A stretch of 64,000 nt of DNA from an uncultured Lachnospiraceae bacterium (GTDB lineage Bacteria; Bacillota; Clostridia; TANB77; CAG-508). Shown piece by piece: positions 11,655 through 47,900 of this stretch. Made by a program: the position numbers and the translations under genes. The notes below the pieces were generated by a model. The model worked only from the letters and a program-made list of their open reading frames with translations. It had not been told where the DNA came from and ran no database searches. The stretch spans positions 24,531 to 88,530 of the forward strand of contig CAZAZX010000002.1 in the NCBI GenBank assembly GCA_964489885.1, given 5' to 3'. Numbering within the stretch: the first letter of the stretch is position 1; every line of letters begins with the position of its first letter.

Positions 11655-11836
11655 AAAATAATAGATTCTTTTACTCTTTACTGTCATATTTAGTCATATA
11701 TTTTAGGAAAAACAAAAAAATTTAAGAAATTTGAATTATGATTTTCTTGAAAAATACTGTATTATTATTGAAAGCATTGTAAAAATATGGTATTATATGT
11801 ATAGAGTTTTATTTGACCATTAGGAGAGTGGTGAAT

Positions 11837-11989
11837 ATGATAAATGACGAAATATGTAGGCTGAGAGAAAAATTGAATGATAGCATAATTAATGGAGAAA
11901 ATTACGAAAAAATATATCAAATAAGTGTTGAACTAGATGAATTAATTGCAAATTATTATAAAGAAGAATATAAAAAACAAAAAACGTAG
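11837..11989 (+). CDS. Spo0E-like sporulation regulatory protein (aspartyl-phosphate phosphatase family), 50 aa, not in the ORF track
   Basis: MINDEICRLREKLNDSIINGENYEKIYQISVELDELIANYYKEEYKKQKT is a Spo0E-family helix-loop-helix pattern. RBS GGAGAG lies upstream. The gene ends at the terminator at 12031. Confidence 0.55.
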   Translation: MINDEICRLREKLNDSIINGENYEKIYQISVELDELIANYYKEEYKKQKT

Positions 11990-12030
11990 GAGAATAAAGA
12001 AATATTAAAGTTAATGAACTTGAGCTAAAA

Positions 12031-12066
12031 TAGAGAGGCGGTCAATAAATGACCGCCTCTTTTTGA
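12031..12066. terminator. Bidirectional GC-rich hairpin terminator between the Spo0E-like gene (+) and the 12078 gene (-)
   Basis: agaggcggtca-ataaat-tgaccgcctct with T runs on both sides. Confidence 0.6.
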
Positions 12067-12077
12067 GGTTGCTGACT

Positions 12078-12596
12078 TTAGCGCGAAAAATAAAGATAAA
12101 CTCTATTTTCCGTAATAACGTTAAGACCCATTTCGCTTGCGAGCCTACGGTAGAGCGCCCTGTCAACGGTTTTTGGAAGGTATATTGGTTCACCAGAAGA
12201 AATCGCATTTGCAATGTTCTGAAGAGCCGTTTCCTCCCGGACATCCAATGGCTTTGAAGTAGACATTGAGCCGAGTTCAATGTTCTGCCCCATTTGACCA
12301 TGAGCAGCAATTACGTAAACGTAATTGGGCTGCTCATACCGCCCGCCATTGCGACGAGCAATTTCTCGCCGCTGGCGTTCCCAGCGATTACGATCCTTAA
12401 TGGACCGCAAAAACTGATCTGAATATTCACGCAGAGTTTGCCGGTATAGCCTTACGGCTTCATAGCGGGTCTCTCGCTTGATATCGTCCCAAAAGGAACG
12501 ATGGCTGCTGGCTTCAGCCTCAGATGGCGCAAAATTTGCACCCATCATGAAGGCGAAAAGCACAGCTAAAAAGCAATTAACAACTTTCCGCAACAT
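12078..12596 (-). CDS. Small secreted protein (signal peptide ...APSEAEA|SS) in a second GC-rich foreign island
   Basis: The G+C is far above the flanks. Strong RBS GGAGGAGG. Several in-frame CGG codons. The product is an Arg/Glu-rich secreted protein. Confidence 0.6.
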   Translation of the reverse strand: MLRKVVNCFLAVLFAFMMGANFAPSEAEASSHRSFWDDIKRETRYEAVRLYRQTLREYSDQFLRSIKDRNRWERQRREIARRNGGRYEQPNYVYVIAAHGQMGQNIELGSMSTSKPLDVREETALQNIANAISSGEPIYLPKTVDRALYRRLASEMGLNVITENRVYLYFSR

Positions 12597-12731
12597 AAGT
12601 CATTCCTCCTCCTTTTAAGTAGAACACATTGCGATTAATAAAATTATACTATAATTTTCAATAAAAATCAAGAATTTATATGCTTTTTAAGGTGTTATAG
12701 CGCAAAAAACTAACATTTTTTATTAAAATTA

Positions 12732-12810: not shown

Positions 12811-13176
12811 ATGTCAAAAAAATTATTAATGGGAGTAGTAGCAGTCTTAACAGCTTTATTATTATTTACAATGGTTGTTCCAGCTTTTGCAGTAGACAAT
12901 CCGGATGAATTTTTTGATCCTGAAACATCTGGAGGGGTGGCTGATAATTTTAGAACAGCATCTAATACAATAATAGGTGTAGTTCAAGTTGTAGGAACAG
13001 CAGTTGCAATTGTTATGTTAATATGGTTAGGTATAAAATATGTTATAGCAGCACCAGATGAAAAGGCAAATATTAAGCAATCTGCCTTTATATATATAAT
13101 AGCTGCAGTATTTATTTTCGCAGCATCAAATATATTGGCAATTCTTCAAAGATTTTCACAAGACATTACTAAATAA
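12811..13176 (+). CDS. VirB2/TrbC-like T4SS pilin family protein (signal peptide plus two hydrophobic helices), paralog 1
   Basis: Signal peptide ending PAFA, then IIGVVQVVGTAVAIVMLIWLGIKYV and FIYIIAAVFIFAASNILAIL. The topology is that of TrbC/VirB2. Confidence 0.5.
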   Translation: MSKKLLMGVVAVLTALLLFTMVVPAFAVDNPDEFFDPETSGGVADNFRTASNTIIGVVQVVGTAVAIVMLIWLGIKYVIAAPDEKANIKQSAFIYIIAAVFIFAASNILAILQRFSQDITK

Positions 13177-13205
13177 TCTTAATTTAATATACAATAAAAG
13201 TTTGG

Positions 13206-13240
13206 TAGGTACGGCATTTGATACCGTACCTAATTTTATT
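13206..13240 (+). terminator. Hairpin or attenuator after pilin paralog 1
   Basis: ggtacggcat-ttg-ataccgtacc followed by an A/T-rich run. Confidence 0.4.
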
Positions 13241-13293
13241 AAAAAGGAAAATTTAATTTATTAATTAATTTTTTAGAAAGGAATACAATTATT

Positions 13294-13656
13294 ATGAAAA
13301 AGAATGTATTAAAAGTTGTTGCTTTATTGTTAATTATATTTGGGGCCTATTTTTTAGTTGCACAGCCTGCATTTGCAGGAGATCCACTTTCAGGAGTTCA
13401 AGCTGAAGATACAGAGGCTTCTGGAAAAGTTAAAACAGCTGGAAATAAAATAATAGGTATAGTTCAAGTAGTAGGAACAGCAGTAGCTGTTGTTATGCTA
13501 CTTTGGTTAGGAATTAAATATATAGTAGCAGCACCAGATGAAAAAGCAAACATTAAACAATCTTCATTTATATATGTTATTGGAGCTATATTCTTATTTG
13601 CAGCAGTAAATATACTAGGAATTATAAATACTTTTGCAAATGACATAACAAAATAA
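13294..13656 (+). CDS. VirB2/TrbC-like pilin family protein, paralog 2
   Basis: Highly similar to paralog 1 (IIGIVQVVGTAVAVVMLLWLGIKYIVAAPDEKANIKQ). Confidence 0.5.
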   Translation: MKKNVLKVVALLLIIFGAYFLVAQPAFAGDPLSGVQAEDTEASGKVKTAGNKIIGIVQVVGTAVAVVMLLWLGIKYIVAAPDEKANIKQSSFIYVIGAIFLFAAVNILGIINTFANDITK

Positions 13657-13678
13657 AATAATAAAAGAGTGATGTAAA

Positions 13679-14041
13679 ATGAAAAAAAAGATAATTACAA
13701 CTTTATTAACTCTATTGCTAATTACATTTGCCTTATCAATACCTGTATTTGCAGATCCTCCAGGTTCAAGTTCGCTATCTGGAATTAATAACCCATGGGG
13801 AACAAACAGTCAGCTAAGGAGTGCAGGAAATAAGGTAATAGGAATTGTATGGGCAGTTGGAGGAGTTGCATCTGTAATATTTTTAATGATGCTTGGAATT
13901 AGATATATGATTGCTAGCCCAGACGAAAAGGCACAAGTTAAGCAACAATTGATTCCATTTGTGTTTGGTGCTATTTTGACTTTTGGCGCAATAAATATAA
14001 TTGGAATAGTAGGAACTTTTGCCTCAAACATATTTAAATAA
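13679..14041 (+). CDS. VirB2/TrbC-like pilin family protein, paralog 3
   Basis: Same architecture (VIGIVWAVGGVASVIFLMMLGIRYMIASPDEKAQVKQ). Confidence 0.5.
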   Translation: MKKKIITTLLTLLLITFALSIPVFADPPGSSSLSGINNPWGTNSQLRSAGNKVIGIVWAVGGVASVIFLMMLGIRYMIASPDEKAQVKQQLIPFVFGAILTFGAINIIGIVGTFASNIFK

Positions 14042-14073
14042 AATAATACTAATGAAATTTAATATGGTTGCAT

Positions 14074-14112
14074 AAGATAAATAATTTAAAGATTATTTAT
14101 CTTTTTTTTTAC
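14074..14112 (+). terminator. Rho-independent terminator after pilin paralog 3
   Basis: agataaataat-ttaaag-attatttatct plus a T9 run. Confidence 0.6.
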
Positions 14113-14344
14113 TTTTTTTTTACAAAAAAATTTCAAAAACTTAAAAAAACTCTTTCCGTAAGGAATTTTTAATTAATAAATTTTTGCTTTATTACGAATA
14201 TGTTACATTTTGCAATAATAAGTTTTAATTGTACTATTTTTGTTGAAATATAGATGAATATAAGGTATAATTAATATATCTGTAAACTAGTTATATGTTG
14301 TTAAAAACATAATATTTTGTATAAATAAGAAAGGGAGAAATATA

Positions 14345-14752
14345 ATGAATAAAATTATTAGAATAATTTCATTAATTTTTTTAATTTTAATGTTTTTTTA
14401 TCCAATGACTTCTGAGGTAAGAGCAGATACATTTACAGGCTCAGACTCAATAATATCTCAAGGAAATGATTGGATAAGAAAAGGAAAAGATGCTGGAATA
14501 GTTAAAGAAGAGGATGTATCTAAAATTGTTTTGCCAATAGGTCAGTTTTTAGTTGGACTTGGAGCAATAATATTAGTTATAGTAACAATAGTGATGGGAA
14601 TTAAATATATGGCATCTTCAGATGCAAGAGCACAGGCAGATATAAAACAAAGATTAATATGGGTTGTTGTTGCTGCAGTTGTAATATTTGGAGCATATAC
14701 AATTTGGACAATTACATATAACTTTATGGCTGATGTCACTAATCTTAATTAA
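14345..14752 (+). CDS. VirB2/TrbC-like pilin family protein, divergent paralog 4
   Basis: Signal peptide plus two hydrophobic helices. The ...GIKYMASSDARAQADIKQ... motif is shared with paralogs 1-3. Confidence 0.45.
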   Translation: MNKIIRIISLIFLILMFFYPMTSEVRADTFTGSDSIISQGNDWIRKGKDAGIVKEEDVSKIVLPIGQFLVGLGAIILVIVTIVMGIKYMASSDARAQADIKQRLIWVVVAAVVIFGAYTIWTITYNFMADVTNLN

Positions 14753-14775: not shown

Positions 14776-15141
14776 ATGGGAACTTATTATATTCCGCGTA
14801 ATCTTAGAGGTGAAACAAGAATTCTATATATTTTTACTGTAAAATCTCTAATATCAACTGCAATTGGGGGAGTAATTGGACTTGTGTTCTATTTTTTATT
14901 TGCAGCAATGGGAATTAAAGTGGCAGGAATTATTACAATGGCAGTGTTTGCCTTAATTGGATTTGGAATTGGTACAATTAAAATACCAACAGTTGCCGGA
15001 TTACCATTTACAAAAAAAATTGGTGGAGAACCACTAAGTGAAATAATTAGAAGATATATTAAGTTTAGAATGAATAGAAAGATTTATACATATTATACAA
15101 AAGATTCAGTACGTACAAAGGAGGAAAATAAAAATGGATAA
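14776..15141 (+). CDS. PrgI/TcpE-like (VirB3-like) small T4SS membrane protein
   Basis: 121 aa with two TM helices, lying immediately upstream of the VirB4-like gene. Confidence 0.5.
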   Translation: MGTYYIPRNLRGETRILYIFTVKSLISTAIGGVIGLVFYFLFAAMGIKVAGIITMAVFALIGFGIGTIKIPTVAGLPFTKKIGGEPLSEIIRRYIKFRMNRKIYTYYTKDSVRTKEENKNG

Positions 15142-16372
15142 TGCTGTTAACTTATTAAATATTGTATTAGTGGTTTTAGTCTTTATAATTATGTTTTTAG
15201 GGTTGCTATACTTTTTTGTTTGGTATAGAAATAAAAACAAAACTAAGGAAGAAATTAAAGCAACAGAAAAAGGAAAAAATTCTTCAGAATATGTATCACC
15301 AATTGATGGAAGATTAACAAAAGATTCTATATATAAGTTTATGGAATTTGATGAAATTAAGGATAATATGATAATAAGAAAAAATAGAACACAATATGTT
15401 ATGGTAATCCAATGTCAAGGTGTTAATTATGACTTATTGTCAGAGGCTGAAAAGGTTGCAGTTGAAGAAGGTTTTGTTCAATTTTTGAACACACTTCGCT
15501 TTCAAGTTCAATTATATGTTCAAACAAGAAGTTTAAATTTAAGAGATATTATTGAAGAATATAATAAAAAAGTTGGAACTATACAAAAAGAAGTTGAACA
15601 ATTAAGAGCAAAAATTCAAATAGCTGCAAATAGTGGAAATACAGCTCAATTTGATAGATTAAAATTTGAAGAGAGAAGAAAAATAAATATCCTTGAATAT
15701 GGAAGGGATATTTCAGAATACATAGGAAGAATGAGTCTAAATAGAAATGTACTACAACAAAAAACATACATTGTAGTTTCTTATTTTGTAAGTGAATTAG
15801 GTGGAGTTGCAAATTATTCTAAGGAAGAAATAGATAATATGTGTTTCTCAGAATTATATACAAGAGCACAAGCTATTATTAGATCACTTGCTTCATGTGA
15901 AGTATCAGGAAGAATATTAAATTCAGAAGAATTGGCAGAACTTTTATATATTGCATATAACAGGGATGATGCAGAATTATTACAATTATCAAAAGCTTTA
16001 GATGCAGAGTATGATGCCTTATATTCAACTTCAAAAGACGTTTTAGAAAAGAGAGAAAAATTATTAGATAAAAAATTAGAAGAAGAAGCTGTAGAATTGG
16101 CAACAAAGAGCATTATAAGTGCTGATGAAAAACTTGAAAAAGAAAAAGAAGAAAAGGCAAAACATGATAAAAAATTAAGACAAAAAGCAACTAGAATTGT
16201 AAATGAATATAAAAGCCAAATGGAGCCAGAGCTATATAATAAAACATTAGAAGAGATTAAGAATGAGACAAGCGAAACAAAAGAAGATGAAGAATTAGAG
16301 GAAATAGATGAAGAGGTAGAAGAGGCTAGTACACCAAAGAAGAGAAAAGGAAGACCAAAGAAAGCTGAATAA
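15134..16372 (+). CDS. T4SS-associated membrane protein (N-terminal TM, VirB4-N-domain-like motif, Lys/Glu-rich coiled-coil C-terminus)
   Basis: YVMVIQCQGVNYDLLSEAEKV...FLNTLRFQVQLYVQTR resembles VirB4/TrbE N-domain pattern. No ATPase motifs are present. Confidence 0.4.
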   Translation: MDNAVNLLNIVLVVLVFIIMFLGLLYFFVWYRNKNKTKEEIKATEKGKNSSEYVSPIDGRLTKDSIYKFMEFDEIKDNMIIRKNRTQYVMVIQCQGVNYDLLSEAEKVAVEEGFVQFLNTLRFQVQLYVQTRSLNLRDIIEEYNKKVGTIQKEVEQLRAKIQIAANSGNTAQFDRLKFEERRKINILEYGRDISEYIGRMSLNRNVLQQKTYIVVSYFVSELGGVANYSKEEIDNMCFSELYTRAQAIIRSLASCEVSGRILNSEELAELLYIAYNRDDAELLQLSKALDAEYDALYSTSKDVLEKREKLLDKKLEEEAVELATKSIISADEKLEKEKEEKAKHDKKLRQKATRIVNEYKSQMEPELYNKTLEEIKNETSETKEDEELEEIDEEVEEASTPKKRKGRPKKAE

Positions 16373-16410
16373 TAGACAGTAAAATTAAAGACCAAAGAGG
16401 AGGAAGTTTA

Positions 16411-18381
16411 ATGTTTGGAAGTAAAAAGAAAAAAGAAAGTGTTGAACCAATTGTAAAAACTGAATATAAAAAACAAGATTTTATAAGTGGCAATGTAAAA
16501 AATATAAAAGATTTAATTGCACCTGCTGGAATTAATGCAGGAAATGTTAATCATTTGGAAATCATATCAAATACTACAAGATATGCTAGAACTATGCTTG
16601 TAAGTACTATTCCTAGAATGTGTACATTTCCAGAGTTTTTAAGAGGAATGTACACTTTTGGAGATGTAAATGTTTCTGTATTTATTAATCCTGTAAGTGA
16701 AAGTTCATCACAAACAGATTTGAATAGAACAATTAATGAACTTGAATCTGAAAGAATTGTTGCTATGGACAGAGGAGATATAAACAGAGAAAGAATATTG
16801 GCTCAAAAAAGAGCTGAAGCAGAAGCTCTAAGAGATGAAATAGCAAGTGGATTTAACAAATTATTTGAATCATCAATTATGTGCACATTGTTTGCATATA
16901 GTCTTGAAGAACTTGATAAATACACAGAAATGCTTTCTGCAGAAATGTCAAAAACATTAATAGGTGTAAAGCCTGCTTGGGCATTACAAGATGAAGCTTT
17001 CCGTAGTAATATACCATTTGGTGAAGATAAAATAAATAAAAAACACAACTTTGACAGAAGATCAATGTCAACAGTATTTCCATTTTTCCAATCTGAGGTA
17101 GGTCACGACAAAGGTATACCTTTGGCATTTAATAGACAAACAGGGTTACCAATTTTATTTGATAATTTTAGCCCAACACTTGCGAATTATAATATGGTTA
17201 TATTTGGAAAGTCTGGTGCAGGTAAGGGTGTTACAATTAAAACATTAACAGCACGTTCTTCTGTTTTAGAAGGTATTGAAAGCTTAGCACTTGATGCTGA
17301 AGGTGAGTATGGAATTGTTGCAGATGCTTTAGGTGGAATTAATGTTACAATAAGTCCTAACTCAAAAACAGTTATTAATCTATTTGATGTTGAACCAGAA
17401 ACTGTTAGAGATGAAATTACAGGAAAAGAAAGAGTTATTTTAAATATAGAAAATAAAGTAGAAGATGTAACTCAAGCATTATTAACAATGGCAAGAGGAA
17501 GCACAAGAAGTCAAGAAGTTAACGAATTAACTAAACAAATTATAGCTGAAGCTGTTGCAGAAGAATATGCTTCAAGAGGTATAACTGATAATATAGAAAG
17601 TTTATATGAAAATGATGGACCAATTGTAAATAAAAACTTTTTAGGTAGACAAAAGAAAGAAATGCCAACTATAGGTTCTTGGTATAAGAGGATTTCAAAG
17701 TTAGCACAAACAAATACAAACCCAGATTATCGTTTTCACTATAGTTATTTAATAAAGGTTATGAAACAATATGTAAGAGAATATGACGGCCAAATGGCAT
17801 ATTTTGATGGACAATCAACATTTGAATTGCTTGATGGTGTTCCATTTATTAATCTTGATATTTCAAATTTGGAAGAGCGTTTTGCAAGACCTCTTGCACA
17901 ACAAATATTGCTTTCTTGGATTTGGGAGAAATATGTAAAGAAAAATAGTGAGGATAGATCAAAGGCTGCTAAAAAAAGAGTACTTGTTGATGAAGCATGG
18001 ATGTTACTTCCATACCCTGAGGCTGTTGATTTCTTAAATACAATGGCTAGACGTGCAAGAAAGAGAAATGTTTCACTAGCAGTTATTTCACAAAAATTCC
18101 AAGATTTTTATGAAAAACCTGAAGTACAAGCAGTTTTAACATCATCAGATACTAAACTATTTTTAGCACAGGATAAATCTGAAATTGATTATATAAAAGA
18201 AGTGTTTAAACTAAGTGAAGGTGAAGCATATTTTCTAACAACATGTAGCCGTGGTGAAGGGCTATTAAAAGTTGGAGAAGATACTGCAATTATTGCAATT
18301 AAACCAACTAAAAAAGAATTTGAATTTGTAGAAACAAACTTAAATGTTTTAAGAAAAGAAGACAAGAAAAAAATAAGATAA
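16411..18381 (+). CDS. VirB4/TrbE/TcpF-like T4SS ATPase
   Basis: P-loop-like IFGKSGAGKGVT, Walker B/DEAW box VLVDEAWMLL, and a VirB4-type N-domain (APAGINAG...RYARTMLVSTIP). Confidence 0.65.
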   Translation: MFGSKKKKESVEPIVKTEYKKQDFISGNVKNIKDLIAPAGINAGNVNHLEIISNTTRYARTMLVSTIPRMCTFPEFLRGMYTFGDVNVSVFINPVSESSSQTDLNRTINELESERIVAMDRGDINRERILAQKRAEAEALRDEIASGFNKLFESSIMCTLFAYSLEELDKYTEMLSAEMSKTLIGVKPAWALQDEAFRSNIPFGEDKINKKHNFDRRSMSTVFPFFQSEVGHDKGIPLAFNRQTGLPILFDNFSPTLANYNMVIFGKSGAGKGVTIKTLTARSSVLEGIESLALDAEGEYGIVADALGGINVTISPNSKTVINLFDVEPETVRDEITGKERVILNIENKVEDVTQALLTMARGSTRSQEVNELTKQIIAEAVAEEYASRGITDNIESLYENDGPIVNKNFLGRQKKEMPTIGSWYKRISKLAQTNTNPDYRFHYSYLIKVMKQYVREYDGQMAYFDGQSTFELLDGVPFINLDISNLEERFARPLAQQILLSWIWEKYVKKNSEDRSKAAKKRVLVDEAWMLLPYPEAVDFLNTMARRARKRNVSLAVISQKFQDFYEKPEVQAVLTSSDTKLFLAQDKSEIDYIKEVFKLSEGEAYFLTTCSRGEGLLKVGEDTAIIAIKPTKKEFEFVETNLNVLRKEDKKKIR

Positions 18382-18448
18382 TGTCTAAAAATTAAAGAAT
18401 ATAGCATTTATTTTAAAAGTAGAAGATAATTTTATGGAAGGTGTGTAT

Positions 18449-38338: not shown

Positions 38339-39575
38339 ATGAAAAAGGTATTATTTGCTGTAATTTTTGTTTTATGCTTTACAAGCTTTGTTTATGCAGA
38401 TGACGAAGATTTTGAACAGTTAAGTGAATTTGAAATTTGGGAAGATATTAGACAAACATCTGCAAAAGAAAGTAATTTGCCAAACGTAAATTCTAGAGCA
38501 GCAGTAGTAATAGATAGAAATTCTAAGGCAATTTTATTTGGGAAAAATGAGAATGATAAAAGACCAATGGCATCAACAACCAAAATTATGACTGCTATTG
38601 TTTGCTTAGAAAATGGAAATTTGAATAAAGAAATAGAAGTATCTCCTAAAGCTGCCGGAATAGGTGGATCATGCTTAGGCCTAAAAAAAGGTGATAAATT
38701 AACTTTAAACGATTTACTTTATGGCCTTTTATTGCGTTCACGGAAATGATGCTGCAGTACAAATTGCAATAACAATAAGTGGAAGTGTTGAGAATTTTGC
38801 AGAATTAATGAATAAAAAAGCAAAAGACATAGGATTAAATAATACGCACTTTATTACACCACATGGATTGGATAATGAAGAACACTATACTACTGCTTAT
38901 GAATTAGCTTTATTAACAGACTATGCATTAAATAATAAAAAATTTGCCGAAATAGTAAATACTAAGTATTATACAATACATATTAATAACCAAGAAAAAA
39001 ATTTAAAAAATACAAATGAACTACTTGGTGTGTTAGATGGTGTAAATGGTGTAAAAACAGGTTTTACAAATAAGGCAGGTAGATGTCTTGTTACTTCTAC
39101 ATCAAGGAATAATTGGCAAACTATTTGTGTCGTTTTAGGTGCAGATACTAAGAAGATTAGAACAAATGACAGTATAAAACTAATAGAATATGCGTATAAA
39201 GATTTTGAACTAATAGATGTTGGTAAAATTATAGAGAAAAAATATAATTTATGGAAAAGTGAGGAAGAGCCTCAAATTTATATTAATAAAGGCGAGAAAG
39301 AAAAGATACAAACATATATAGAAAAAATTCCTTATGAAAAATATCCAATATTAAAGAGTAATAAGAAAAATATTGATTGCTCAATAGAAAGTTTTAAATT
39401 TTTAGAAGCCCCTATATACCAAAATACTGAAGTCGGAATAATTAAATTGGAAGTTGATGGTAAAGAAATTTGTAATATCAATATAAGATGTGGAAAAACC
39501 ATAGAAAAAAAGTCAATTGGTGATTATTTTAGAATTTTATTCTGTGGATTGGGTACTTACTTAACAAATTTTTAA
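38339..39575 (+). pseudogene. D-alanyl-D-alanine carboxypeptidase (DacF/PBP5-like), split by a +1 frameshift at the in-frame CGG at 38741-38743 inside the SGN motif
   Basis: SxxK = ASTTK and KTG = VKTGFT. ...LLLRS|GNDAAV is broken as tca[c]ggaaat. Confidence 0.7.
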
Positions 39576-39878: not shown

Positions 39879-42800
39879 ATGAAAAAAATAAAATTAAAAG
39901 CAGTTGTGAGTATGCTATTAATAATAACTATATTATTTAGTAATTTTAGTTGGTTAAGTATATATGCATATTCAGCAACTTCAAGCTTAACATCAGATTC
40001 CACTGTATTAGAAACAGGAAAAACGTATACATTGACATTGAAAATTAACCCAACTGATGTTGGAACAACAGAAGGAATAGATTCAATGCAGGGATCGATA
40101 AAATTTGAAACAGATGTATTTAATGTGTCAAAAGATGATATAGATGATTATTTTAATGATACAAAAAAATGGCAGACTCCTTCTATACAAACTATAACTT
40201 ATGAGAATGGATTTACTATAATTTCATTTATTTCAGATACTAAGTCTAATAAAAAATATAATACTGAAACTGAAGTATTTACTATAACATTAACAACAAA
40301 AGATAGTGTAGATGTAAATAGTACGACAATATCAATAGATTCTTCAGGAATATTTGACTATTCTGTATCTGGAGGAAAAACTCAAGCTGGAGGCACTGGT
40401 GATATTTATCTTGACCCTGTATCAGTTACATTAAAGAAGGCAACTCAAGATCCTGAACCAACACCTGCAACATCAGCTATTGTTAGCAAATTTAAAAAAG
40501 ATACTACAACACTTTTAGATGGAGCAACAATTGCTTTATATAAAACAGCAGAGAATGCTCAAGCAGGAGAAAGTGCACTTGCAGAATTAACAACAGGAAC
40601 AGATGGACAAGATACTGGTAAAGTTGATTTTGCGAAGGCAACAAGTTTAACGACAGGAACATATTTTTATAAAGAAACAAAAGCACCAGATGGTTATGTA
40701 ACAAATGATACTATATATTCATTTAGTGTAGATTCAGAAGGAAATGTAACATATAATAGCCCAAATACAAAGGGAATAATTGAAGATGAAGAAGAAACAG
40801 TTGCACCAACACCTGCAACATCAGCAATTATAGTAAAACAAGATAAAGAATCAAAGGCAGTTTTAAATGGAGCAACAATTGCCTTATATGATACAAAAAC
40901 AAAAGCGGAAACAGGCTCAGAAGAAAATGCACTTGCAGTATTAACAACAGGAGAAAATGGACAAGTTGATTTTGCAAAATCAACAAGTTTAACGACAGGA
41001 ACATATTTTTATAAAGAAACAAAAGCACCAGATGGATATGATGTAAATAACACAGTATATTCATTTAGTGTTAATTCAGAAGGAAAGGTAACATATAATA
41101 GCCCAAACACAGAAGGAATTATATATGATACAGAAACAGCACCAACACCTGCAACATCAGTAATTGTTACAAAACGTATAAAAGATACAACTACACCATT
41201 AGCTGGAGCAAAAATTGCTTTAGTAGATGAATTTGGAAATATATTAAAAACAGAATCAAAAAAAAGTGCAGTATTAACAACAGGAGAAAATGGACAAGTT
41301 AATTTAGCAACATTATTAGATTTAACAAAAGGAACACATTTTTATAAAGAAGTTGCTGCACCAACAGGATATAAAGCAGATACAGAAGTATATTCTTTTG
41401 ATGTTGACAAGGCTGGAAATGTAACATTTAATGCACCAAACACAAAGGGTATAATTGAAGATGAGGCAATTACAGCTAATAGCGTAATTATTACAAAATA
41501 TAAAACAGATACATATGATGTTGTAGAGGGTGCAACAATTGCTTTATATAAAACAGCAGAGAATGCTAAAGCAGGAGAAAATGCACTTGCAAAATTAACA
41601 ACAGATGAAAATGGACAAGTTGATTTTGCTAGTAGAGCTACTTTAGAGACAGGAAAGACATATTATTATAAGGAAACAGCAGCACCATTAGGATATGTAA
41701 AAAATGATAAAGTTTATTCATTTACAATAAATGCAGATTCAACAGTAACATTTGATGAAGCAAATGGAATTTTATACAATGATAGAATTTCTGCTGGAGA
41801 TGAAACTGTTGTAATCCAAAAAGTAAAATCATCAGATGCAACACCACTTCAAGGTGCAAAAATTGCCTTATATAGCAGTAGAGATGATGCAACAAATAAA
41901 GATACAACAAATGAAGACAAAGCAATAATCGAATTAACAACTGATGAAAATGGAAAAGCATATTTTTCAAGGGAAACTACATTAGAACCAGGAACATATT
42001 TTTATAAAGAAACAGTAGCACCAACTGGTTACAGTTTAAATACAAATATTTATAGCTTTAAAGTAAATGAAGATGGAACAGTAACTTTTGAAGATAAGGC
42101 TAATAATGGAACAATATATGATGATAGAATAACAGCTCAAGAAGGAACAGCAGTAATTACAAAATATAAAACAGACACAGAAACTCCAGTTCAAGGAGCA
42201 GAAATAGCCTTATATGATTCAGAGCATAGTGCAATACAAAAAGATGGCAAAGATGTGGTATTAACAACAGATGAAAATGGACAAATAGATTTTTCAAAAG
42301 CAGTAGGATTAGAACCAGGAACATATTATTATAAAGAAACAAAAGCTCCATTAGGATATAAACTAAACGAAACAGAATACTCATTCACAGTAAGTGAAGA
42401 GGGAACAGTAACATTTGATAGTGCAGAAGGTAAGCTATACGATGAAAGAGTAATAGCAGGAGAAGATTCTGTAATAGTTACAAAATTAAGAAGAAGTTTA
42501 GAAACACCGCTTCAAGGAGCAGAAATAACCTTATATGATTCAGAACACAAAATAATGAAAGACAAAGATGGAAATGATGCAGTATTAACAACAGATGAAA
42601 ATGGAAACGCTATTTTTTCAAAAGTAGTAAAATTAGAACCAGGTACTTACTATTTTAAAGAAACAAAAGCACCAACTGGATATAGTCTAAATGAAACAGA
42701 ATATACATTTACAGTAAATAATGATGCAAGTGTAGATTTTGATAATGCAAATGGAATAATATATGATGACAGAATAACAGCTCAAGAAGGAACAGCAGTA

Positions 42801-44630
42801 ATAACAAAATATAAAACAAATACAGAAACACCACTTCAAGGAGCAAAAATCGCCTTATATGATTCAGAGCATAATGCAATGAAAGATAAAGACGAAAAAG
42901 AAATAGTATTAACAACAGATGAAAAAGGACAAGTAGATTTTTCAAAAGTAGTAGGATTAGAACCAGGAACATATTACTATAAAGAAGTACAAGCACCAAA
43001 AACATATGTTTTAAATGAAACAGAATATTCATTCACAGTAAGTGAAGAAGGAACAGTAACATTTGATAGTGCAGAAGGTAAATTATACAACGATAGGGCG
43101 ACAGCAGAAGAAGGAACAGCAATTGTAACAAAATTAAGAAAAAATACAGAAACACCACTTCAAGGAGCAGAAATAACACTATATGATTCAGAACGTGAAA
43201 TAATGAAAGACAAAGATGGAAATGATGTAGTATTAACAACAGATGAAAAAGGACAAGTAGATTTTTCAAAGGCATTAGGATTAGAGCCAGGAACATATTA
43301 CTACAAAGAAACAAAGGCTCCATTGGGATATAAGCTAAATGAAACAGAATATTCATTCACAGTAAGTGAAGATTGTGTAGTTGAATTTGGAGCTTCAAAT
43401 GGAAAAATATATGATGATAGAATAACAGCTCAAGAAGGAACAGCAGTAATTACAAAATACAAAAAGGGCACAACAATTGCTGTACCAGGAGCAGAAATTA
43501 CCTTATATAATTCAGAAAACAAAGTAATGAAGTATGCAAATGGAGAGGATATTGTATTAAAAACAGATGCAAAAGGAAAGGCAGATTTTTCAAAAGCAAC
43601 TGCTTTAGAGCCAGGAACATATTTCTATAAAGAAACAAAAGCACCAGAAACATATATTAAAAATGATACAAAATATTCATTCACAGTAAGTGAAGAAGGA
43701 AAAGTAACATTTGATAGTGCAAATAGTATTTTATACAATGATAGAATAACAGCAAAAGAAGGAACAGTAGTAATTACAAAATACAAAAAAGGAACAGAAA
43801 CAGTATTAAAGGGTGCGGAAATAACACTATATGATTCAGAACATAAAGTTATGAAAGATAAAAATGGCAAAGATGTAATATTAACAACAGACGAAAAGGG
43901 ACAAGCAGATTTTTCAAAAGCAGTAGGATTAGAGCCAGGAACATATTATTATAAAGAAACAAAGGCTCCATTTGGATATAAAGTAAACGAAACAGAGTTT
44001 TCATTTACAATTCAAAATGATGTAACAGTTAAATTTGATGAAAATAATGGAAAAATTTATGATTCAAGAATGACAGCAAAACCTGGAACAGTTACAATTA
44101 CAAAATATGTTACAGGAACTACAACTCCAATTGCTGGTGCACAAATTGTTCTATGTGATTCAAAGGGAACTATTTTAAAAGCTGATGACAAAGAATTAAA
44201 ATTAACAACAGATTCAAAAGGAAAGGTTGATTTTACAACAATAGTTAACTTAGAACCAGGAACATATTATTACAAAGAAACAAAAACACCAACTGGATAT
44301 AAATTAGATACAAAATTATATTCATTTAATGTTAATGAGGATGGAACAGTAACATTTGATAGTGCAAACAGTATTTTATACAACTCAAAAGATGAAACAA
44401 AACCACCGAAAGAAGCAGGAGCAGGAGAAGAAACAAAAGATAATACAAAAGAAGAGACAAAAACAGAAGGAAGAACAGAAACAAAGGATGAAACGAATAC
44501 AATACCTACTAAGGAAACAAAACCAGATAAATTACCTTATGCTGGAATTGAACCTATACATGTAGGAATTGGAGCAGCAATAATACAATTAATCGGAAGT
44601 GCTGTATTACTATTTAAAAGATTTATTTAA
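39879..44630 (+). CDS. Pilin-like surface protein: N-terminal cohesin-like domain, about 14 SpaA/CnaB-type repeats, C-terminal LPYAG + TM + basic tail
   Basis: Repeated GTYFYKETKAP.GY...YSF.V motif. N-domain is paralogous to those of 58808 and 59799. C-terminus KLPYAGIEP...LLFKRFI. Confidence 0.7.
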   Translation: MKKIKLKAVVSMLLIITILFSNFSWLSIYAYSATSSLTSDSTVLETGKTYTLTLKINPTDVGTTEGIDSMQGSIKFETDVFNVSKDDIDDYFNDTKKWQTPSIQTITYENGFTIISFISDTKSNKKYNTETEVFTITLTTKDSVDVNSTTISIDSSGIFDYSVSGGKTQAGGTGDIYLDPVSVTLKKATQDPEPTPATSAIVSKFKKDTTTLLDGATIALYKTAENAQAGESALAELTTGTDGQDTGKVDFAKATSLTTGTYFYKETKAPDGYVTNDTIYSFSVDSEGNVTYNSPNTKGIIEDEEETVAPTPATSAIIVKQDKESKAVLNGATIALYDTKTKAETGSEENALAVLTTGENGQVDFAKSTSLTTGTYFYKETKAPDGYDVNNTVYSFSVNSEGKVTYNSPNTEGIIYDTETAPTPATSVIVTKRIKDTTTPLAGAKIALVDEFGNILKTESKKSAVLTTGENGQVNLATLLDLTKGTHFYKEVAAPTGYKADTEVYSFDVDKAGNVTFNAPNTKGIIEDEAITANSVIITKYKTDTYDVVEGATIALYKTAENAKAGENALAKLTTDENGQVDFASRATLETGKTYYYKETAAPLGYVKNDKVYSFTINADSTVTFDEANGILYNDRISAGDETVVIQKVKSSDATPLQGAKIALYSSRDDATNKDTTNEDKAIIELTTDENGKAYFSRETTLEPGTYFYKETVAPTGYSLNTNIYSFKVNEDGTVTFEDKANNGTIYDDRITAQEGTAVITKYKTDTETPVQGAEIALYDSEHSAIQKDGKDVVLTTDENGQIDFSKAVGLEPGTYYYKETKAPLGYKLNETEYSFTVSEEGTVTFDSAEGKLYDERVIAGEDSVIVTKLRRSLETPLQGAEITLYDSEHKIMKDKDGNDAVLTTDENGNAIFSKVVKLEPGTYYFKETKAPTGYSLNETEYTFTVNNDASVDFDNANGIIYDDRITAQEGTAVITKYKTNTETPLQGAKIALYDSEHNAMKDKDEKEIVLTTDEKGQVDFSKVVGLEPGTYYYKEVQAPKTYVLNETEYSFTVSEEGTVTFDSAEGKLYNDRATAEEGTAIVTKLRKNTETPLQGAEITLYDSEREIMKDKDGNDVVLTTDEKGQVDFSKALGLEPGTYYYKETKAPLGYKLNETEYSFTVSEDCVVEFGASNGKIYDDRITAQEGTAVITKYKKGTTIAVPGAEITLYNSENKVMKYANGEDIVLKTDAKGKADFSKATALEPGTYFYKETKAPETYIKNDTKYSFTVSEEGKVTFDSANSILYNDRITAKEGTVVITKYKKGTETVLKGAEITLYDSEHKVMKDKNGKDVILTTDEKGQADFSKAVGLEPGTYYYKETKAPFGYKVNETEFSFTIQNDVTVKFDENNGKIYDSRMTAKPGTVTITKYVTGTTTPIAGAQIVLCDSKGTILKADDKELKLTTDSKGKVDFTTIVNLEPGTYYYKETKTPTGYKLDTKLYSFNVNEDGTVTFDSANSILYNSKDETKPPKEAGAGEETKDNTKEETKTEGRTETKDETNTIPTKETKPDKLPYAGIEPIHVGIGAAIIQLIGSAVLLFKRFI
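40440..44340 (+). repeat. Array of about 270-290-bp intragenic tandem repeats (near-identical DNA blocks) encoding the CnaB-like modules
   Basis: Recurring blocks such as aataacagctcaagaaggaacagcagtaat...ccaggaacatattattataaagaaacaaa. Confidence 0.6.
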
Positions 44631-44967: not shown

Positions 44968-47900
44968 ATGAAGAGTAAGAAGATTTTAAAAATAGTTTTA
45001 ATTTTGAGTATTGCAATAATTGCAGCTGTTGCATTAGTCTCAAAAGTATTTTCTGATAGTAGTAGATATTATGTTTTAGATGTCGAACATGCTACTGCTG
45101 ACAGTGAAGGTAATACTAAAAAAGATGACAATTTAAGAATTACAGAAAAAATTAAAGATGATGGTAAAGGAAATTTTGACACTGAAACATTAAATTATGA
45201 GGTAACAGTTTCAAATAAGAATGGAGAAAACAGCATAACACAAATTGCTATGGTTGTTGATACATCATATAGTATGCAAACTAATGATTCAGAAAGTAAA
45301 GCAAAAAGTGAAGCTAAAACATTAGCTCAAGGAATTTTTGATAATCTTTCAAAGTCAGCAAATTTGCAGATGAGTGTATTTAGTAATAACGGGCAAAAAT
45401 GTGCATTAACAAATAATGTAACATTAATTACTAATGCTATAAATGGATTAACAACAGGGGAATCTGAAGACTGTAATAATGGGCTTCAATTAGCTTATGA
45501 TTCTCTAAGTGGAGCTGCACCTGCTGGAAAAACATTAAATAAAATGATTATTTATTTTACAGATTCAACAGATAATGTTTCTCAGAAAATGAAAGATATA
45601 GTTAAGGCAGATCCTAGTTTAAAATTAATAAGTGTTTTAGTTGATTTAACAAGTTCTTCATATTTAGATTTGGATACTGCAAAACCAGTTGAAGGAGAAG
45701 TATATGTTTTACCAGCTTCTGTTAATGAAAGCGATATTTTACCAAAAGACGTTATAATATACGATCCAAATAAAATATATGATGAAGTAAATTTAGCTGC
45801 AAATAGCGTAAAGGTGGAAAACTTCTTTGACCAAGGTATAATAGAAAACTTTGATATTTCTTCTTCTGATTTTTCAGCAACAGAGGGAACAACTGTAACA
45901 CCTAAAGAAGAGAATGGAAAAATAATAGGATATGATTGGAATGTTGGTAATTTAAAATTACAAGAATCTAAAACATTGACATTTTCTATAAAACTAAAAT
46001 CTGATTCTGAATTAAACAAAATGCCTATTAATTCAAAATATATATTTGAGGACATATATACAAATGAGAAACAAAGTATTACATATAAAAAATATAATAC
46101 AGATATTGAAGTAACAATGGATGGACTAGATAAAAGAGAAGGAACAGAGGCAACAGTTGTTAAAATTTGTGAAGGATATAAATTAAAAATTAAAGCTGTA
46201 AGTGATGCAAATAGTGACTTGTCAGTAGAAGGAGTTAAAGTAAATATTACGGGAGTAGACACAAATGGAAAAGAAATATGTAATGTTGAAAAAACTACAG
46301 ATTCAAATGGCTATGTTTTAATTACACCAGATGATTCCTCAGCCTTAAGAAGAGATGGAAAAATAAAATATACTATAACTCCAATGGATACAAATAATCT
46401 TGTGGGATATACATCTTCTGATTCAATGAGTTTTGAAATTGATAATAATAAAGCAAGCAAAAAATTAATTTTTGATGATTTATATTCTGGAATAAAGAAT
46501 GCAATAATTGAATCAACAAGAACAGTCGAAGTTGAAATACCTATAAAAAGTTTAACATTAGATTTAGAAATTCATTCACAAGAACTAAATAATTCTAATA
46601 TAAACATTCCACAATGCAAATTTGAGTTAATTCAACCAAAGCTAAATAGTAAATATGAGATGTCAGTATTATATGGTACTACAGATGATAATGGTGTTTT
46701 ACACTTTAATCCAACAGTCATGACAAAAGACGGTACATATAATTATATTTTAAGACAGGTTTCTGCACCTAATGGATATGAAGTAACAGATTTGGCAATG
46801 ATAAAAATTGAATTTAAAAATGGAAGAATTGTAACACCAAGCTCAAACTCAGACTCATTAAAAGTTTTATATAATGATGCTGTATCTGCAGTCCTTGATG
46901 CTTCTTCTAAAACATCAAATACAGATCTTGTTAAAGTTTTTGTAGGAGATGAAAGCTTAAAAAAAGATCCATTTAAAATACAAATCAATGTAGCTGATGC
47001 AGATGACAACACTATAAAACTAGATGGAGTAACATATAATATTACAGTAACTGATTCACAAGGATTCCCAATAACACAACCTGCCGTAACAGATGAAAAT
47101 GGCCAAATTAATATAGAAGGATATGGAACAGGTTATTTAACACTTGAAATTGAAGAAAAATCAACAAAAGTAGGTTATGAAGAAACTAAGGATAAAAAAG
47201 AAATTATATTGCAACATGTAAATGGTAAAGTTACAATTCTAAGTTGTACACCAACAAGCATCTATAATACAAACGCATATAAAACAGGATATGTACTTGA
47301 TGGAGGAAATCAAATAGGTGTAAAAGTAAACTTAACAAGTAAGAAAAAGACAGAACAAAACATTATAAAATTAAAAATTGTGGATTCAGACCAAACGTAT
47401 TTACCTGCAGGTGAAGAAATAGTATATGAATTATTTGATGAAAATAATGTAAGTTGTGGTATGAAGGGAACTGATTCAAATGGAGAATTAAAATTTACTA
47501 TAGGCAATAGGGAGCCAAGAACATATAAATATACTTTAGTTCCTGAAACTATGACTGCACCAGCAGAATATGATACATCAAAAATTGAAACACCAATTAA
47601 TTTGGATGTAACTTTTGATAATAATGGCATAATTACAAATGCTACTAAAACTTCAACAACATATTCATCAGTAATTTCACAAAATTTCGAAATTGTAAAT
47701 AGCAATAAATTAATTGAGAATACTTATGAATTGACAATTGGATATTATGTAAGAGAAGATGCTACAATAAAATTCACAGTATTACTTAGAGATGAGAAAA
47801 ACATGACAACACCACTTGATAACGCAAAATATAATATTGATATAGAATATGAAACAACAAAGGGTGGAGAAACTGTAACAAGAACAAAAAAATTAGTAAA

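Follow-up and report, generated by a model that had tools for sequence, protein, structure and literature searches.

Four tandem VirB2/TrbC-like pilin genes of a chromosomal type IV secretion locus in uncultured gut Clostridia

Four tandem genes of the uncultured TANB77/CAG-508 lineage probably encode VirB2/TrbC pilins of a chromosomally fixed, MPF_FATA-related monoderm type IV secretion system (T4SS), which was most likely exapted and non-conjugative. We put the probability of this reading at roughly 60%. The genes were studied in a 64-kb stretch of DNA, called the window below, and all coordinates refer to it.

Results

Four pilin-like genes

The earlier note had placed tandem VirB2/TrbC-like pilin genes of a Gram-positive T4SS at 12811, 13294, 13679 and 14345, and open reading frames were confirmed at exactly these starts on the + strand. 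P1 (12811..13176, +, 121 aa), P2 (13294..13656, +, 120 aa) and P3 (13679..14041, +, 120 aa) were of class B, P1 being type 1. P4 (14345..14752, +, 135 aa) was of class A, type 4. In a profile search, all four proteins were above the Pfam gathering cutoffs (GA) for TrbC/VirB2 (PF04956, 27.9 bits) and T4SS_pilin (PF18895, 26.6 bits). The PF04956 scores were 35.8, 35.5, 31.2 and 30.2 bits for P1 to P4. The PF18895 scores were 32.7, 29.9, 26.7 and 41.2 bits, and that of P3 was only marginally over the cutoff. P4 also matched the NCBIfam pilin-like family Mbov_0395 with 32.4 bits, under the cutoff of 40. Holin and immunity families had been named as the identities that would speak against pilins. 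Pfam gave no such match and PHROGs gave two weak, unrelated ones, and a holin or small-membrane-protein identity was rejected on these grounds.

In all four precursors, a Sec-type signal peptide preceded a hydrophobic hairpin of two helices. Inspection of the N-termini showed a K-rich n-region, a hydrophobic h-region and an AxA site. Cleavage sites were placed by the -3/-1 rule and were predicted after AFA in P1 (residue 27), after AFA in P2 (residue 28) and after VFA in P3 (residue 25). The predicted architecture matched the family hallmark of a small precursor in which a cleavable signal peptide precedes a pair of hydrophobic helices linked through a short charged loop. In the AF2 model of P2 (pLDDT 73), a signal-peptide helix (3-22) and a disordered linker were followed by helices 41-78 and 81-119. 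The model of P4 (pLDDT 78) had helices 32-48, 55-90 and 94-133, and P4 had an additional N-terminal amphipathic helix. No TraF-type maturation peptidase was recognised within the T4SS block. PrgI, TrsD-like, VirB4 and VirB6-like genes, the neighbours expected of a VirB2 family, lay directly downstream, and this linkage was found in 78-80/80 related loci. The Pfam scores, the signal peptide with hairpin and the T4SS neighbours bore out the pilin claim. They supported P1-P4 as VirB2-family pilin-like subunits of a chromosomal T4SS, which may form a pilus.

The first three genes had been described as sharing a near-identical core. This was true of P1 and P2, which were 62% identical overall and 74% (amino acids) or 78% (nucleotides) identical across the C-terminal 70 codons. 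It did not apply to P3, which was 35% identical to P1 overall and whose core (VIGIVWAVGGVASVIFLMMLGIRYMIASPDEKAQVKQQ) was 41-53% identical to those of P1 and P2. The fourth gene was divergent as described, with 28% identity between P4 and P1.

The T4SS block

The pilin array was followed by a PrgI/VirB3-like small membrane protein (14776..15141, +), which matched PF12666 with 30.5 bits (GA 27) and was present in 79/80 related loci. Next was a TrsD-like protein of 412 aa (15134..16372, +; in 80/80 loci), which corresponds to the N-terminal VirB4-like module in detached form and carries a TM helix at its N-terminus. Its matches to NCBIfam TrsD (E 5e-4) and VirB4_plasma (positions 48-315) were both weak, and the assignment was backed by a precomputed PF26593 TraC-like match and by a VirB4 without its N-terminus. 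This VirB4-family ATPase (656 aa; 16411..18381, +; PF19044, AAA_10) lacked the usual N-terminal ~180-280 residues. It scored 199 bits against the CD1110 family and 195 bits against VirB4_plasma, and the alignments began at profile positions 178 and 281.

Two VirB6-like proteins followed, each in 78/80 loci. The polytopic membrane protein of 415 aa (18434..19681, +) matched NCBIfam MMCAP2_0566 and Mbov_0396 weakly. Besides a signal peptide, it had a low-complexity stretch rich in Asn and Thr and, internally, a pilin-like motif; its orthologs matched the pilin HMM weakly. The large VirB6/TrbL-like membrane protein of 800 aa (19727..22129, +) matched the pLS20_p028 and Mbov_0396 families and had a pilin-like hairpin at about residues 163-240 (PF18895 22.6 bits, under GA). 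Its ortholog in locus L009 matched TrbL_3.

A Peptidase_C39_2 protein of 1056 aa (22159..25329, +; PF13529, 49 bits) was probably a cell-wall hydrolase in the VirB1 role. In relatives, this slot was occupied by proteins with Hydrolase_2, NlpC/P60 plus lysozyme, or Lysozyme_like domains. The block ended with three small membrane-anchored proteins of 212, 188 and 315 aa (25323..27579, +), of which the 188-aa protein was found in 15/80 and the 315-aa protein in 20/80 loci. Pfam and NCBIfam profile searches gave no significant family for the three; they are possibly VirB8-like or accessory parts. No VirB5-like family was matched in the block in profile searches.

Upstream, a gene for a secreted Arg-rich protein of 172 aa (12078..12596, -) was divergent from the pilin array, with anomalous GC and strong RNA structure. 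It kept its place beside the array in close relatives, and its association with the T4SS was uncertain. The GC-rich upstream block gave no Rfam match and had a substitution pattern that looked coding, which spoke against a known ncRNA. The surroundings of the locus were rich in adhesins.

Distribution and genomic setting

Among uncultured gut Clostridia, at least 80 genomes at the species level, TANB77/CAG-508 genera among them, carried the locus, and their VirB4 had 74% identity or more. The locus was also found in five diverged metagenomic lineages, in four of them at the same chromosomal site. The core module was retained in 78-80/80 loci, and 3-8 tandem pilins were present in 56 of the 62 evaluable loci. 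Word-seeded homolog searches with single pilins gave 19 matches for P2 and 4 for P4, and the profile search gave 439. A check of synteny had been suggested; since the same tandem array recurred upstream of VirB4 in dozens of related genomes, the arrangement was not due to chance.

The locus could be the mating-pair-formation module of an ICE or integrated plasmid, in which the pilins serve DNA transfer and the coupling protein and relaxase are encoded elsewhere. The best matches of VirB4 were to conjugal-transfer families (CD1110, Mbov_0397), the other parts matched ICE and plasmid families, and a syntenic counterpart was found on large Clostridium plasmids. In addition, the T4CP genes of Patescibacteria are mostly far from virB4 (PMC12102498). 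However, no relaxase, T4CP or integrase domain was found among the ORFs >300 aa of the 64-kb window. None of the 80 loci had a second VirB4/VirD4-like ATPase within +-10 kb, and the Walker-A candidates near them turned out to be FtsH, ABC ATPases and similar proteins. The T4CP (VirD4/TcpA), a hallmark of conjugative T4SSs, was seen in neither region. The window also showed none of the hallmarks of a mobile element, namely a relaxase, an integrase, a variable site or atypical composition. The flanks were housekeeping and sporulation genes (topA, trmFO, rplM, rpsI, sporulation genes and M16 peptidases), and the same chromosomal site was occupied in diverged species (24/63 loci). GC content and strand bias were host-like, the VirB4 identity of 74-90% over a broad clade suggested vertical descent, and the plasmid relative was itself typed non-mobilizable. 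We consider a conjugative module unlikely. Relaxase, coupling protein and integrase were absent from the locus, and VirB4 was conserved beyond its housekeeping neighbours: its median identity was 79%, while that of YqeY was 72% and those of the adjacent M16 peptidases were 54-55%. These results suggested that the T4SS was most likely exapted and non-conjugative.

A T4SS for DNA uptake was also considered, in which a short VirB2-like pilus or channel would import DNA as in the competence-type ComB of H. pylori or the archaeal Ced/Ted systems. The component logic was the same, with VirB2-like, VirB3, VirB4 and VirB6 proteins and without relaxase or T4CP, and the ATPase domain showed weak similarity to CedB/CedD. 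However, the Ced matches were 18-21 bits, far under the cutoffs of 600-700, and genes for DNA binding or processing were absent from the block. In Patescibacteria, the essentiality of the T4SS is independent of ComEC-mediated uptake (PMC12857230). No feature of the locus specifically indicated DNA, and we give an uptake system a low probability.

Expression signals in the array

Each gene had been said to have its own RBS, and Shine-Dalgarno-like purine runs were seen 5' of all four starts. Their strength differed, being strong at P1 (AGGAGG) and P4 (AAGGGAG) and weaker at P2 and P3. Folding confirmed the two downstream hairpins of the earlier note, after P1 and after P3, each followed by a U-run. 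The hairpin after P1 (13206..13232, +) had a 9-bp stem and a 9-nt loop followed by AUUUUAUU (-13.1 kcal/mol, z -2.46) and was terminator- or attenuator-like. That after P3 (14075..14110, +; stem-loop 14075-14102) was AT-rich, with 12-13 bp and a 9-U run (-10.6 kcal/mol, z -3.81), and was intrinsic-terminator-like. A generic terminator scan missed both because of the long loop or the AT-rich stems.

The region's best sigma-70-like promoter match (14243..14271, +; TTGAAA-17-TATAAT, 11/12) was in the 303-nt gap 5' of P4. It was a consensus match only, and the total of promoter-like sites in the region was not above shuffles. P1 looked monocistronic, with its own strong RBS and downstream hairpin. 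P3 began 22 nt past P2, and the two are probably co-transcribed. P4 headed the machinery operon, and PrgI started 23 nt after it. The hairpins and the promoter-like site divided the array into P1, P2-P3 and P4 with the machinery.

Paralog classes and their history

The arrays contained two pilin classes, an invariant type beside PrgI (P4) and a set of variable number (P1-P3), which had 2 to 7 copies between species. In 49 of 52 arrays the pilin in last position was of type 4, by a median margin of 56 bits. Across arrays, the gap 5' of the last pilin was about 203 nt versus 30 nt elsewhere. The type-4 pilin as the ancestral single pilin was unsupported, as the pilin of plasmid p12/29 scored 13 bits against type 4 and 15-21 bits against types 1-3.

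Array copy number ranged from 1 to 8, with a mean within-array identity of 36%. Paralogs were positionally orthologous across species, with 67% identity between P1 and L005_1 and, for P3, 50% to L011_3 and 46% to L005_3. This meant that the paralogs were old and individually retained. In the core of P1 and P2, dS was 0.79 and dN 0.15. With the nucleotide identity of 78% there, these values ruled out recent duplication or gene conversion of the pair. The dN/dS of about 0.2 in this core, and of below 1 in the N-terminal part, indicated that the paralogs were under purifying selection.

The earlier note had proposed antigenic or functional diversification, or different expression regimes. In antigenic or host-range variation, the cell would exchange one subunit for another and thereby escape immunity or reach other binding partners, as with the tandem trwL (VirB2) genes in the Trw system of Bartonella or the virB2 families in Anaplasma and Ehrlichia. 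These systems are without coupling protein and are thought to act in adhesion or surface variation. They belong to the diderm MPF_T type, their VirB5-like genes are amplified as well, and they show evidence of diversifying or concerted evolution. The tandem amplification and the T4SS without coupling protein were similar here; the tandem VirB2 copies of those systems are cited in PMC12102498. Variation was suggested by the divergent arrays of differing copy number, by the mature N-terminal segment, which was the most variable pilin part, and by pilins that diverged faster than VirB4 across lineages (40-67% versus 76-90% identity). The adhesin-rich surroundings would also fit. However, the VirB5 homolog was absent here, and the paralogs were ancient, positionally orthologous and under purifying selection, with a dS of 0.8 and no sign of gene conversion. 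Invertible or recombination elements were not noticed either. The DNA of the four genes was 100% identical in four independent samples of the species while flanking genes carried SNPs, which ruled out antigenic hypervariation in this species. Age, positional orthology, purifying selection and identity across samples all argued against antigenic variation, which we regard as improbable. The proposal of antigenic diversification was not sustained. Functional diversification or different expression regimes gained support from the positional orthology, the two classes and the separate transcription signals.

Discussion

The results show to which family the pilins belong, how they are built, which genes they are linked to, how widely the locus is conserved and how the paralogs arose. 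We propose the following mechanism. Sec would insert each precursor, and cleavage after AxA would leave a helical hairpin of ~92-108 aa in the membrane. VirB4, with the detached TrsD-like N-terminal module and PrgI/VirB3, would pull the subunits out of the membrane and, with the VirB6-like proteins as platform, polymerise them to form a filament or conduit, for whose passage the large hydrolase would open the wall. The paralogs are probably specialised and not redundant. P4 is invariant, single-copy and co-transcribed with the machinery, so its role is probably that of an initiator, base or tip subunit of low abundance. P1, with its own strong RBS and terminator-like hairpin, is the best candidate for the major structural subunit. 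In the filament, the variable N-termini of the mature pilins would be exposed at the surface, with the conserved GIKY..AAPDEKA.IK turn on the lumen side. The system may serve cell-cell or host contact and exchange, like the T4SS of Patescibacteria. The VirB2-fold proteins might instead stay in the envelope, for example lining a channel or forming a short stalk across the thick wall, which differs from the main reading in filament length only. A monoderm T4SS pilus is not known to have been visualised, and the hairpin motif shared with the VirB6-like proteins suggests intramembrane packing. However, having several abundant-looking pilin genes with separate termination is more typical of a filament, and we regard this alternative as very improbable.

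The closest known system to these candidate T4SS pilins is the Patescibacteria T4SS (Ca. Southlakia epibionticum ML1, TM7x), and the TANB77 locus is its Bacillota counterpart. The Patescibacteria system is relaxase-less, has VirB2 arrays including an essential pilin array, and has been described as unique among monoderms (PMC12102498, PMC12857230). Both systems are monoderm and chromosomal, and the component set of tandem VirB2-like pilins, PrgI/VirB3, TrsD, VirB4 and VirB6 was found here too, with no relaxase nearby, as is usual there. The tandem pilins are divergent in both (2-11 there, 1-8 here), and PF04956 and PF18895 match those of either system. The hosts are alike in having reduced genomes and in being uncultured or host-associated. 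The differences are that the host here is a spore-forming Bacillota lineage and that the mean within-array identity is 36% here and 25% there. In addition, the pilins here fall clearly into two classes, one of them a single invariant pilin next to PrgI, and the locus has a large wall hydrolase, whereas VirB1 is absent from most Patescibacteria loci.

The best family matches of VirB4, PrgI, TrsD and the VirB6-like proteins were to MPF_FATA systems of Firmicutes and Tenericutes (C. difficile CTn2 CD1110, Mycoplasma ICE Mbov_0395-0397, pCF10 PrgI, pGO1 TrsD), and that of P4 was to the pilin-like protein of the Mycoplasma ICE. However, all NCBIfam matches here were under the curated cutoffs, and T4CP, relaxase and mobile-element hallmarks were absent. 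In the published MPF_FATA description, pilin homologs were not reported (PMC4027160).

Large plasmids of C. botulinum and C. beijerinckii (for example p12/29, NZ_KT897275.1) carried a syntenic module. It included a 127-aa pilin-like protein, a PrgI-sized protein, TrsD-like (28.5% identity), VirB4 (41%) and VirB6-like proteins, and, on p12/29, a C39 peptidase in the slot of the 1056-aa protein, followed by three genes similar in size to those for 212, 188 and 315 aa. The plasmid pilin-like gene was located via VirB4 synteny and the family HMM only, and tblastn of P4 against plasmids gave no match. In contrast to the array here, it is a single gene, the module is plasmid-borne, and all module genes are annotated as hypothetical or DUF87.

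The TANB77 clade has a published Tad (type IVc) pilus cluster with 'pilin 938', a conserved multi-pilin surface-appendage locus (PMC11680825). It is an unrelated machine of the same uncultured clade, with a CpaF/TadA ATPase, a TadB/C platform and single-TM type IV pilins of 143-236 aa. An identity of P1-P4 with this published conserved pilin was ruled out because that pilin belongs to the Tad pilus, and T4SS and VirB2 are unmentioned in that paper (PMC11680825).

The locus matters because in the textbook view Gram-positive type IV systems are without VirB2 pilins. Reviews describe monoderm T4SSs without VirB2, with Patescibacteria as the sole exception (PMC4027160, PMC12857230), so the remark that such pilins are rarely described for Gram-positive T4SSs was accurate. 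The same pilin architecture was found here in Bacillota, where a large clade of uncultured gut bacteria has kept it. It offers a concrete candidate for the origin of the Patescibacteria T4SS pilin arrays, which was left open (PMC12102498), and a second setting in which the role of relaxase-less monoderm T4SSs can be studied. A link between TANB77 and the response to checkpoint immunotherapy has been made via the different Tad pilin (PMC11680825), so a second conserved set of surface filament proteins would be of practical interest. We suggest tentatively, as a possibility with the odds still against it, that TANB77 and related gut Clostridia, as true Gram-positive spore-formers with reduced genomes, assemble a VirB2-type pilus of several subunits by means of a non-conjugative T4SS that is inherited vertically, linked in evolution to the essential T4SS of Patescibacteria and possibly its Bacillota source. 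Such a pilus might be a contact or exchange organelle on which these bacteria depend, and in a clade with ties to immunotherapy response it might add a second set of conserved surface antigens.

Pilin array and secretion machinery

All four ORFs claimed by the earlier note were confirmed on the + strand at the exact coordinates: P1 (12811-13176, 121 aa), P2 (13294-13656, 120 aa), P3 (13679-14041, 120 aa) and P4 (14345-14752, 135 aa). P2, P3 and P4 were 62%, 35% and 28% identical to P1. A near-identical core had been described for three genes. This held for P1 and P2 (74% amino acid and 78% nucleotide identity in the final 70 codons) but was an overstatement for P3, which was just 41-53% identical to P1 and P2 over this C-terminal region. 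With this one exception the observation was real, and the interpretation as VirB2/TrbC-like pilins was supported, with the array heading a T4SS block. The block comprised a PrgI/VirB3-like gene (14776; PF12666 above cutoff), a 412-aa TrsD-like protein (15134; matching TrsD and the VirB4 N-terminal part weakly, precomputed PF26593 TraC-like) and a 656-aa VirB4 ATPase (16411). Against the VirB4 families CD1110 and Mbov_0397, the alignment of this ATPase began no earlier than profile positions 178 and 281. This meant that it lacked the N-terminal module, the part that TrsD-like proteins resemble. VirB4 appeared split over 15134-18381, the TrsD-like gene weakly matching the missing part. The C. 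botulinum plasmid had the same split, as had all of the best 80 of 489 related loci.

Two VirB6-like polytopic proteins followed (18434-19681, 415 aa; 19727-22129). Each had an internal hairpin motif, G-V-R-M/L-A-A...AKYK, like the pilin turn (core GIKY..AAPDEKA.IK), and their orthologs gave weak pilin-HMM or PF18895 matches. The 415-aa protein carried an Asn/Thr-rich repeat tract in which indels distinguished the samples (7 gap openings relative to L001, a copy from another sample). The next gene (22159) encoded a 1056-aa Peptidase_C39_2 protein, and three genes for small membrane-anchored proteins lay 3' of it. Since its positional counterparts in relatives carried Hydrolase_2, NlpC/P60-lysozyme or Lysozyme_like domains, the C39 protein probably fills the VirB1 wall-hydrolase role.

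Purine-rich RBS-like sequence was found 5' of all four pilin starts, and the two hairpins that had been noted lay 3' of P1 (13206-13232, -13.1 kcal/mol, z -2.5) and P3 (14075-14102, -10.6 kcal/mol, z -3.8), with a U-run after each. RNA structure was absent from the 22 nt between P2 and P3 and from the 23 nt between P4 and the PrgI/VirB3-like gene. The best sigma-70-like site of the region (14243-14271, 11/12, a consensus match only) was in the 303-nt gap 5' of P4. These hairpins, spacings and the promoter-like match suggest three transcription units: P1, P2-P3, and P4 with the machinery.

Conservation in related genomes

The locus was present in several metagenomes as exact or nearly exact copies. 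Four further lineages had the same layout, with pilins 40-67% and VirB4 76-90% identical. Three of them shared the chromosomal site of the window, in the order yqeY, two M16 peptidases, (lgt), spo0E-like, minus-strand secreted protein, four pilins and PrgI. In the fourth (loci L007 and L008), the locus was origin-proximal, near gidA-gidB-parA-parB. Here a long type-4-like (P4-like) pilin of 209 aa came first in the array, not last, and an IS-like insertion with HTH_28/HTH_21 fragments (L007, 11333-12215) lay between the array and PrgI.

When one genome was scanned for each species, 489 VirB4 relatives were confirmed, and the best 80 (74-90% identity) were analysed. All 80 were from uncultured gut Clostridia MAGs of humans, rabbits, ruminants, chickens and mice, including Clostridium sp. 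CAG:354, CAG:793 and Ca. Scatovivens; CAG-354 and Scatovivens belong to GTDB order TANB77, family CAG-508. The synteny check proposed earlier showed that the linkage of array and machinery recurs: PrgI, TrsD-like, VirB4 and both VirB6-like genes occurred together in 78-80 of these best 80 loci. Median identity was higher for VirB4 (79%) than for YqeY (72%) and the adjacent M16 peptidases (54-55%). No second VirB4/VirD4-like ATPase was detectable within ±10 kb in the 80 loci; the Walker-A ORFs checked there were FtsH, ABC ATPases, hydrolases or unknowns.

Pilin classes and paralog history

A pilin HMM found tandem arrays 5' of VirB4 in nearly all of the best 80 loci. Where the upstream sequence was long enough (62 loci), arrays held 1 (5 loci), 2 (1), 3 (26), 4 (8), 5 (1), 6 (6), 7 (13) or 8 (2) pilins, and within-array identity averaged 36%. 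Judged by sequence, the paralogs are positionally orthologous across loci. P1 matched best the first pilin of locus L005 (67%), P3 the third of L011 (50%), and P4 the fourth of L011, L005 and L009 (47, 42 and 38%). Type-specific HMMs show two pilin classes. The PrgI-adjacent pilin was type 4 in 49/52 arrays (median margin 56 bits), and the gap 5' of it was 203 nt (median) compared to 30 nt between other pilins. Types 1-3 were weakly distinct from each other and were the source of copy-number variation.

With a dS of 0.79 and a dN of 0.15, the P1/P2 core points to a duplication that is old, is under purifying selection and has seen no recent conversion. Across four independent samples of this species, all four pilin genes and their spacers were 100% identical in DNA; M16b, TrsD-like and VirB4 carried SNPs.

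Genomic surroundings

The locus was preceded by topA, trmFO, rplM, rpsI, yabG, sipL, yunB, yqeY and two M16 peptidases, and the block was followed by CAP-domain proteins, two tRNAs and giant surface proteins. GC content (about 0.26-0.34) and GC skew were uniform over the window, and no relaxase, coupling-protein or integrase domain was found among its ORFs >300 aa.

A small Spo0E-like gene (11813-11989, PF09388) directly 5' of the locus was kept in every same-site relative and found by tblastn in 26/80 of the best 80 loci. A secreted Arg-rich protein of 172 aa (ORF 12078-12596, - strand) adjoined the array divergently. Its gene had a GC3 of 0.45 compared to 0.13-0.14 in neighbours and a coding-like substitution pattern. 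The RNA folded far more stably than shuffled sequence, with z -8.85 for the region (12030-12620), -6.95 when the ORF alone was folded and -4.7 in the L005 ortholog, and the region matched no Rfam family. Positional orthologs were present in L005, L009 and L011; no homolog was detectable in 80 more distant loci.

Three genes looked frameshifted or split, possibly through errors in assembly or through gene decay: the first CAP-domain gene (27723-28589; SH3-like N-terminus lost near 27880-27925), an HD-domain gene (37259-38183, - strand; 134-aa and 179-aa ORFs) and a D-Ala-D-Ala carboxypeptidase (38339-39575; 136-aa and 284-aa ORFs). A 4567-aa protein (44968-58671) had an N-terminal VWA, SpaA-type repeats and a C-terminal dockerin, and the next protein (58808-59779, 323 aa) matched cohesin weakly, which suggests that the giant protein is an adhesin anchored by cohesin-dockerin pairing. 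Giant surface proteins were also encoded at 30118-35229 (DUF11) and 39879-44630 (12 SpaA repeats). A response-regulator/GGDEF protein (36308-37246) sat with HD-domain genes amid the giant adhesin genes, a hint that surface structures may be controlled by c-di-GMP.

Comparison with known systems

MPF_FATA systems were described as having no pilin homologs, and monoderms as having no VirB2 (Guglielmini et al., PMC4027160). A 2025 FEMS review stated that Gram-positive T4SSs lack VirB2 and VirB5 with Patescibacteria as the sole exception, their pilus-building potential being unique among monoderms (PMC12857230). The Patescibacteria system of Quinonero-Coronel et al. consists of VirB4, TrsD, PrgI/VirB3, VirB6 and VirB2 arrays. 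They counted 441 such arrays, with 2-11 genes each and 25% mean identity, most of them lacking a relaxase, and left the origin of the pilins open (PMC12102498). The present locus has the same component set, but its host is a member of Bacillota. The nearest plasmid relatives were C. botulinum/C. beijerinckii megaplasmids, typed non-mobilizable, whose VirB4 was 41% identical. Their syntenic module had a single pilin-like gene instead of an array, and the TANB77 pilin HMM recognised this gene (E about 3e-8). Such modules lay on C. botulinum plasmids of about 134-143 kb and one C. beijerinckii plasmid, with all genes annotated hypothetical or DUF87; on p12/29 (NZ_KT897275.1, 9066-19725) the pilin-like gene was unannotated. 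Bartonella Trw and Anaplasma virB2 families resemble the array in their tandem amplification but differ in selection regime. The published 'conserved TANB77 pilin' is part of an unrelated Tad pilus, described in a paper that makes no mention of a T4SS (PMC11680825). For Clostridia, Firmicutes or TANB77, literature searches gave no other account of VirB2 arrays. Chromosomal monoderm T4SSs carrying arrays of VirB2 pilins are a class recognised only recently, and the present feature belongs to it as a member from Bacillota. It is kept across an uncultured gut clade of clinical note and is apparently undescribed.

Proposed mechanism and role

In solved conjugative pili, the N-terminal part of the pilin faces outward and the basic turn faces the lumen. 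By analogy, the mature N-terminus, which is variable here, would lie on the surface, with the conserved basic turn pointing toward the lumen. VirB4-dependent extraction of membrane pilin is established VirB2 biology (cited in PMC4027160). On this model, pilin precursors would be Sec-inserted, cleaved and pooled in the membrane, VirB4/TrsD/PrgI would polymerise them on the VirB6-like platform, and the filament would pass through wall that the hydrolase had opened. Judged by gene order and transcription signals, P1 is probably the abundant structural subunit; P2 and P3 would serve as further shaft subunits or as variants, and P4 would be a machinery-coupled minor subunit at the base, initiation point or tip. 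Filament formation, substrate and function of this T4SS are inferred. The absence of mobility genes from the window and the very high conservation of VirB4 point to a plausible exapted, non-conjugative role in contact or exchange.
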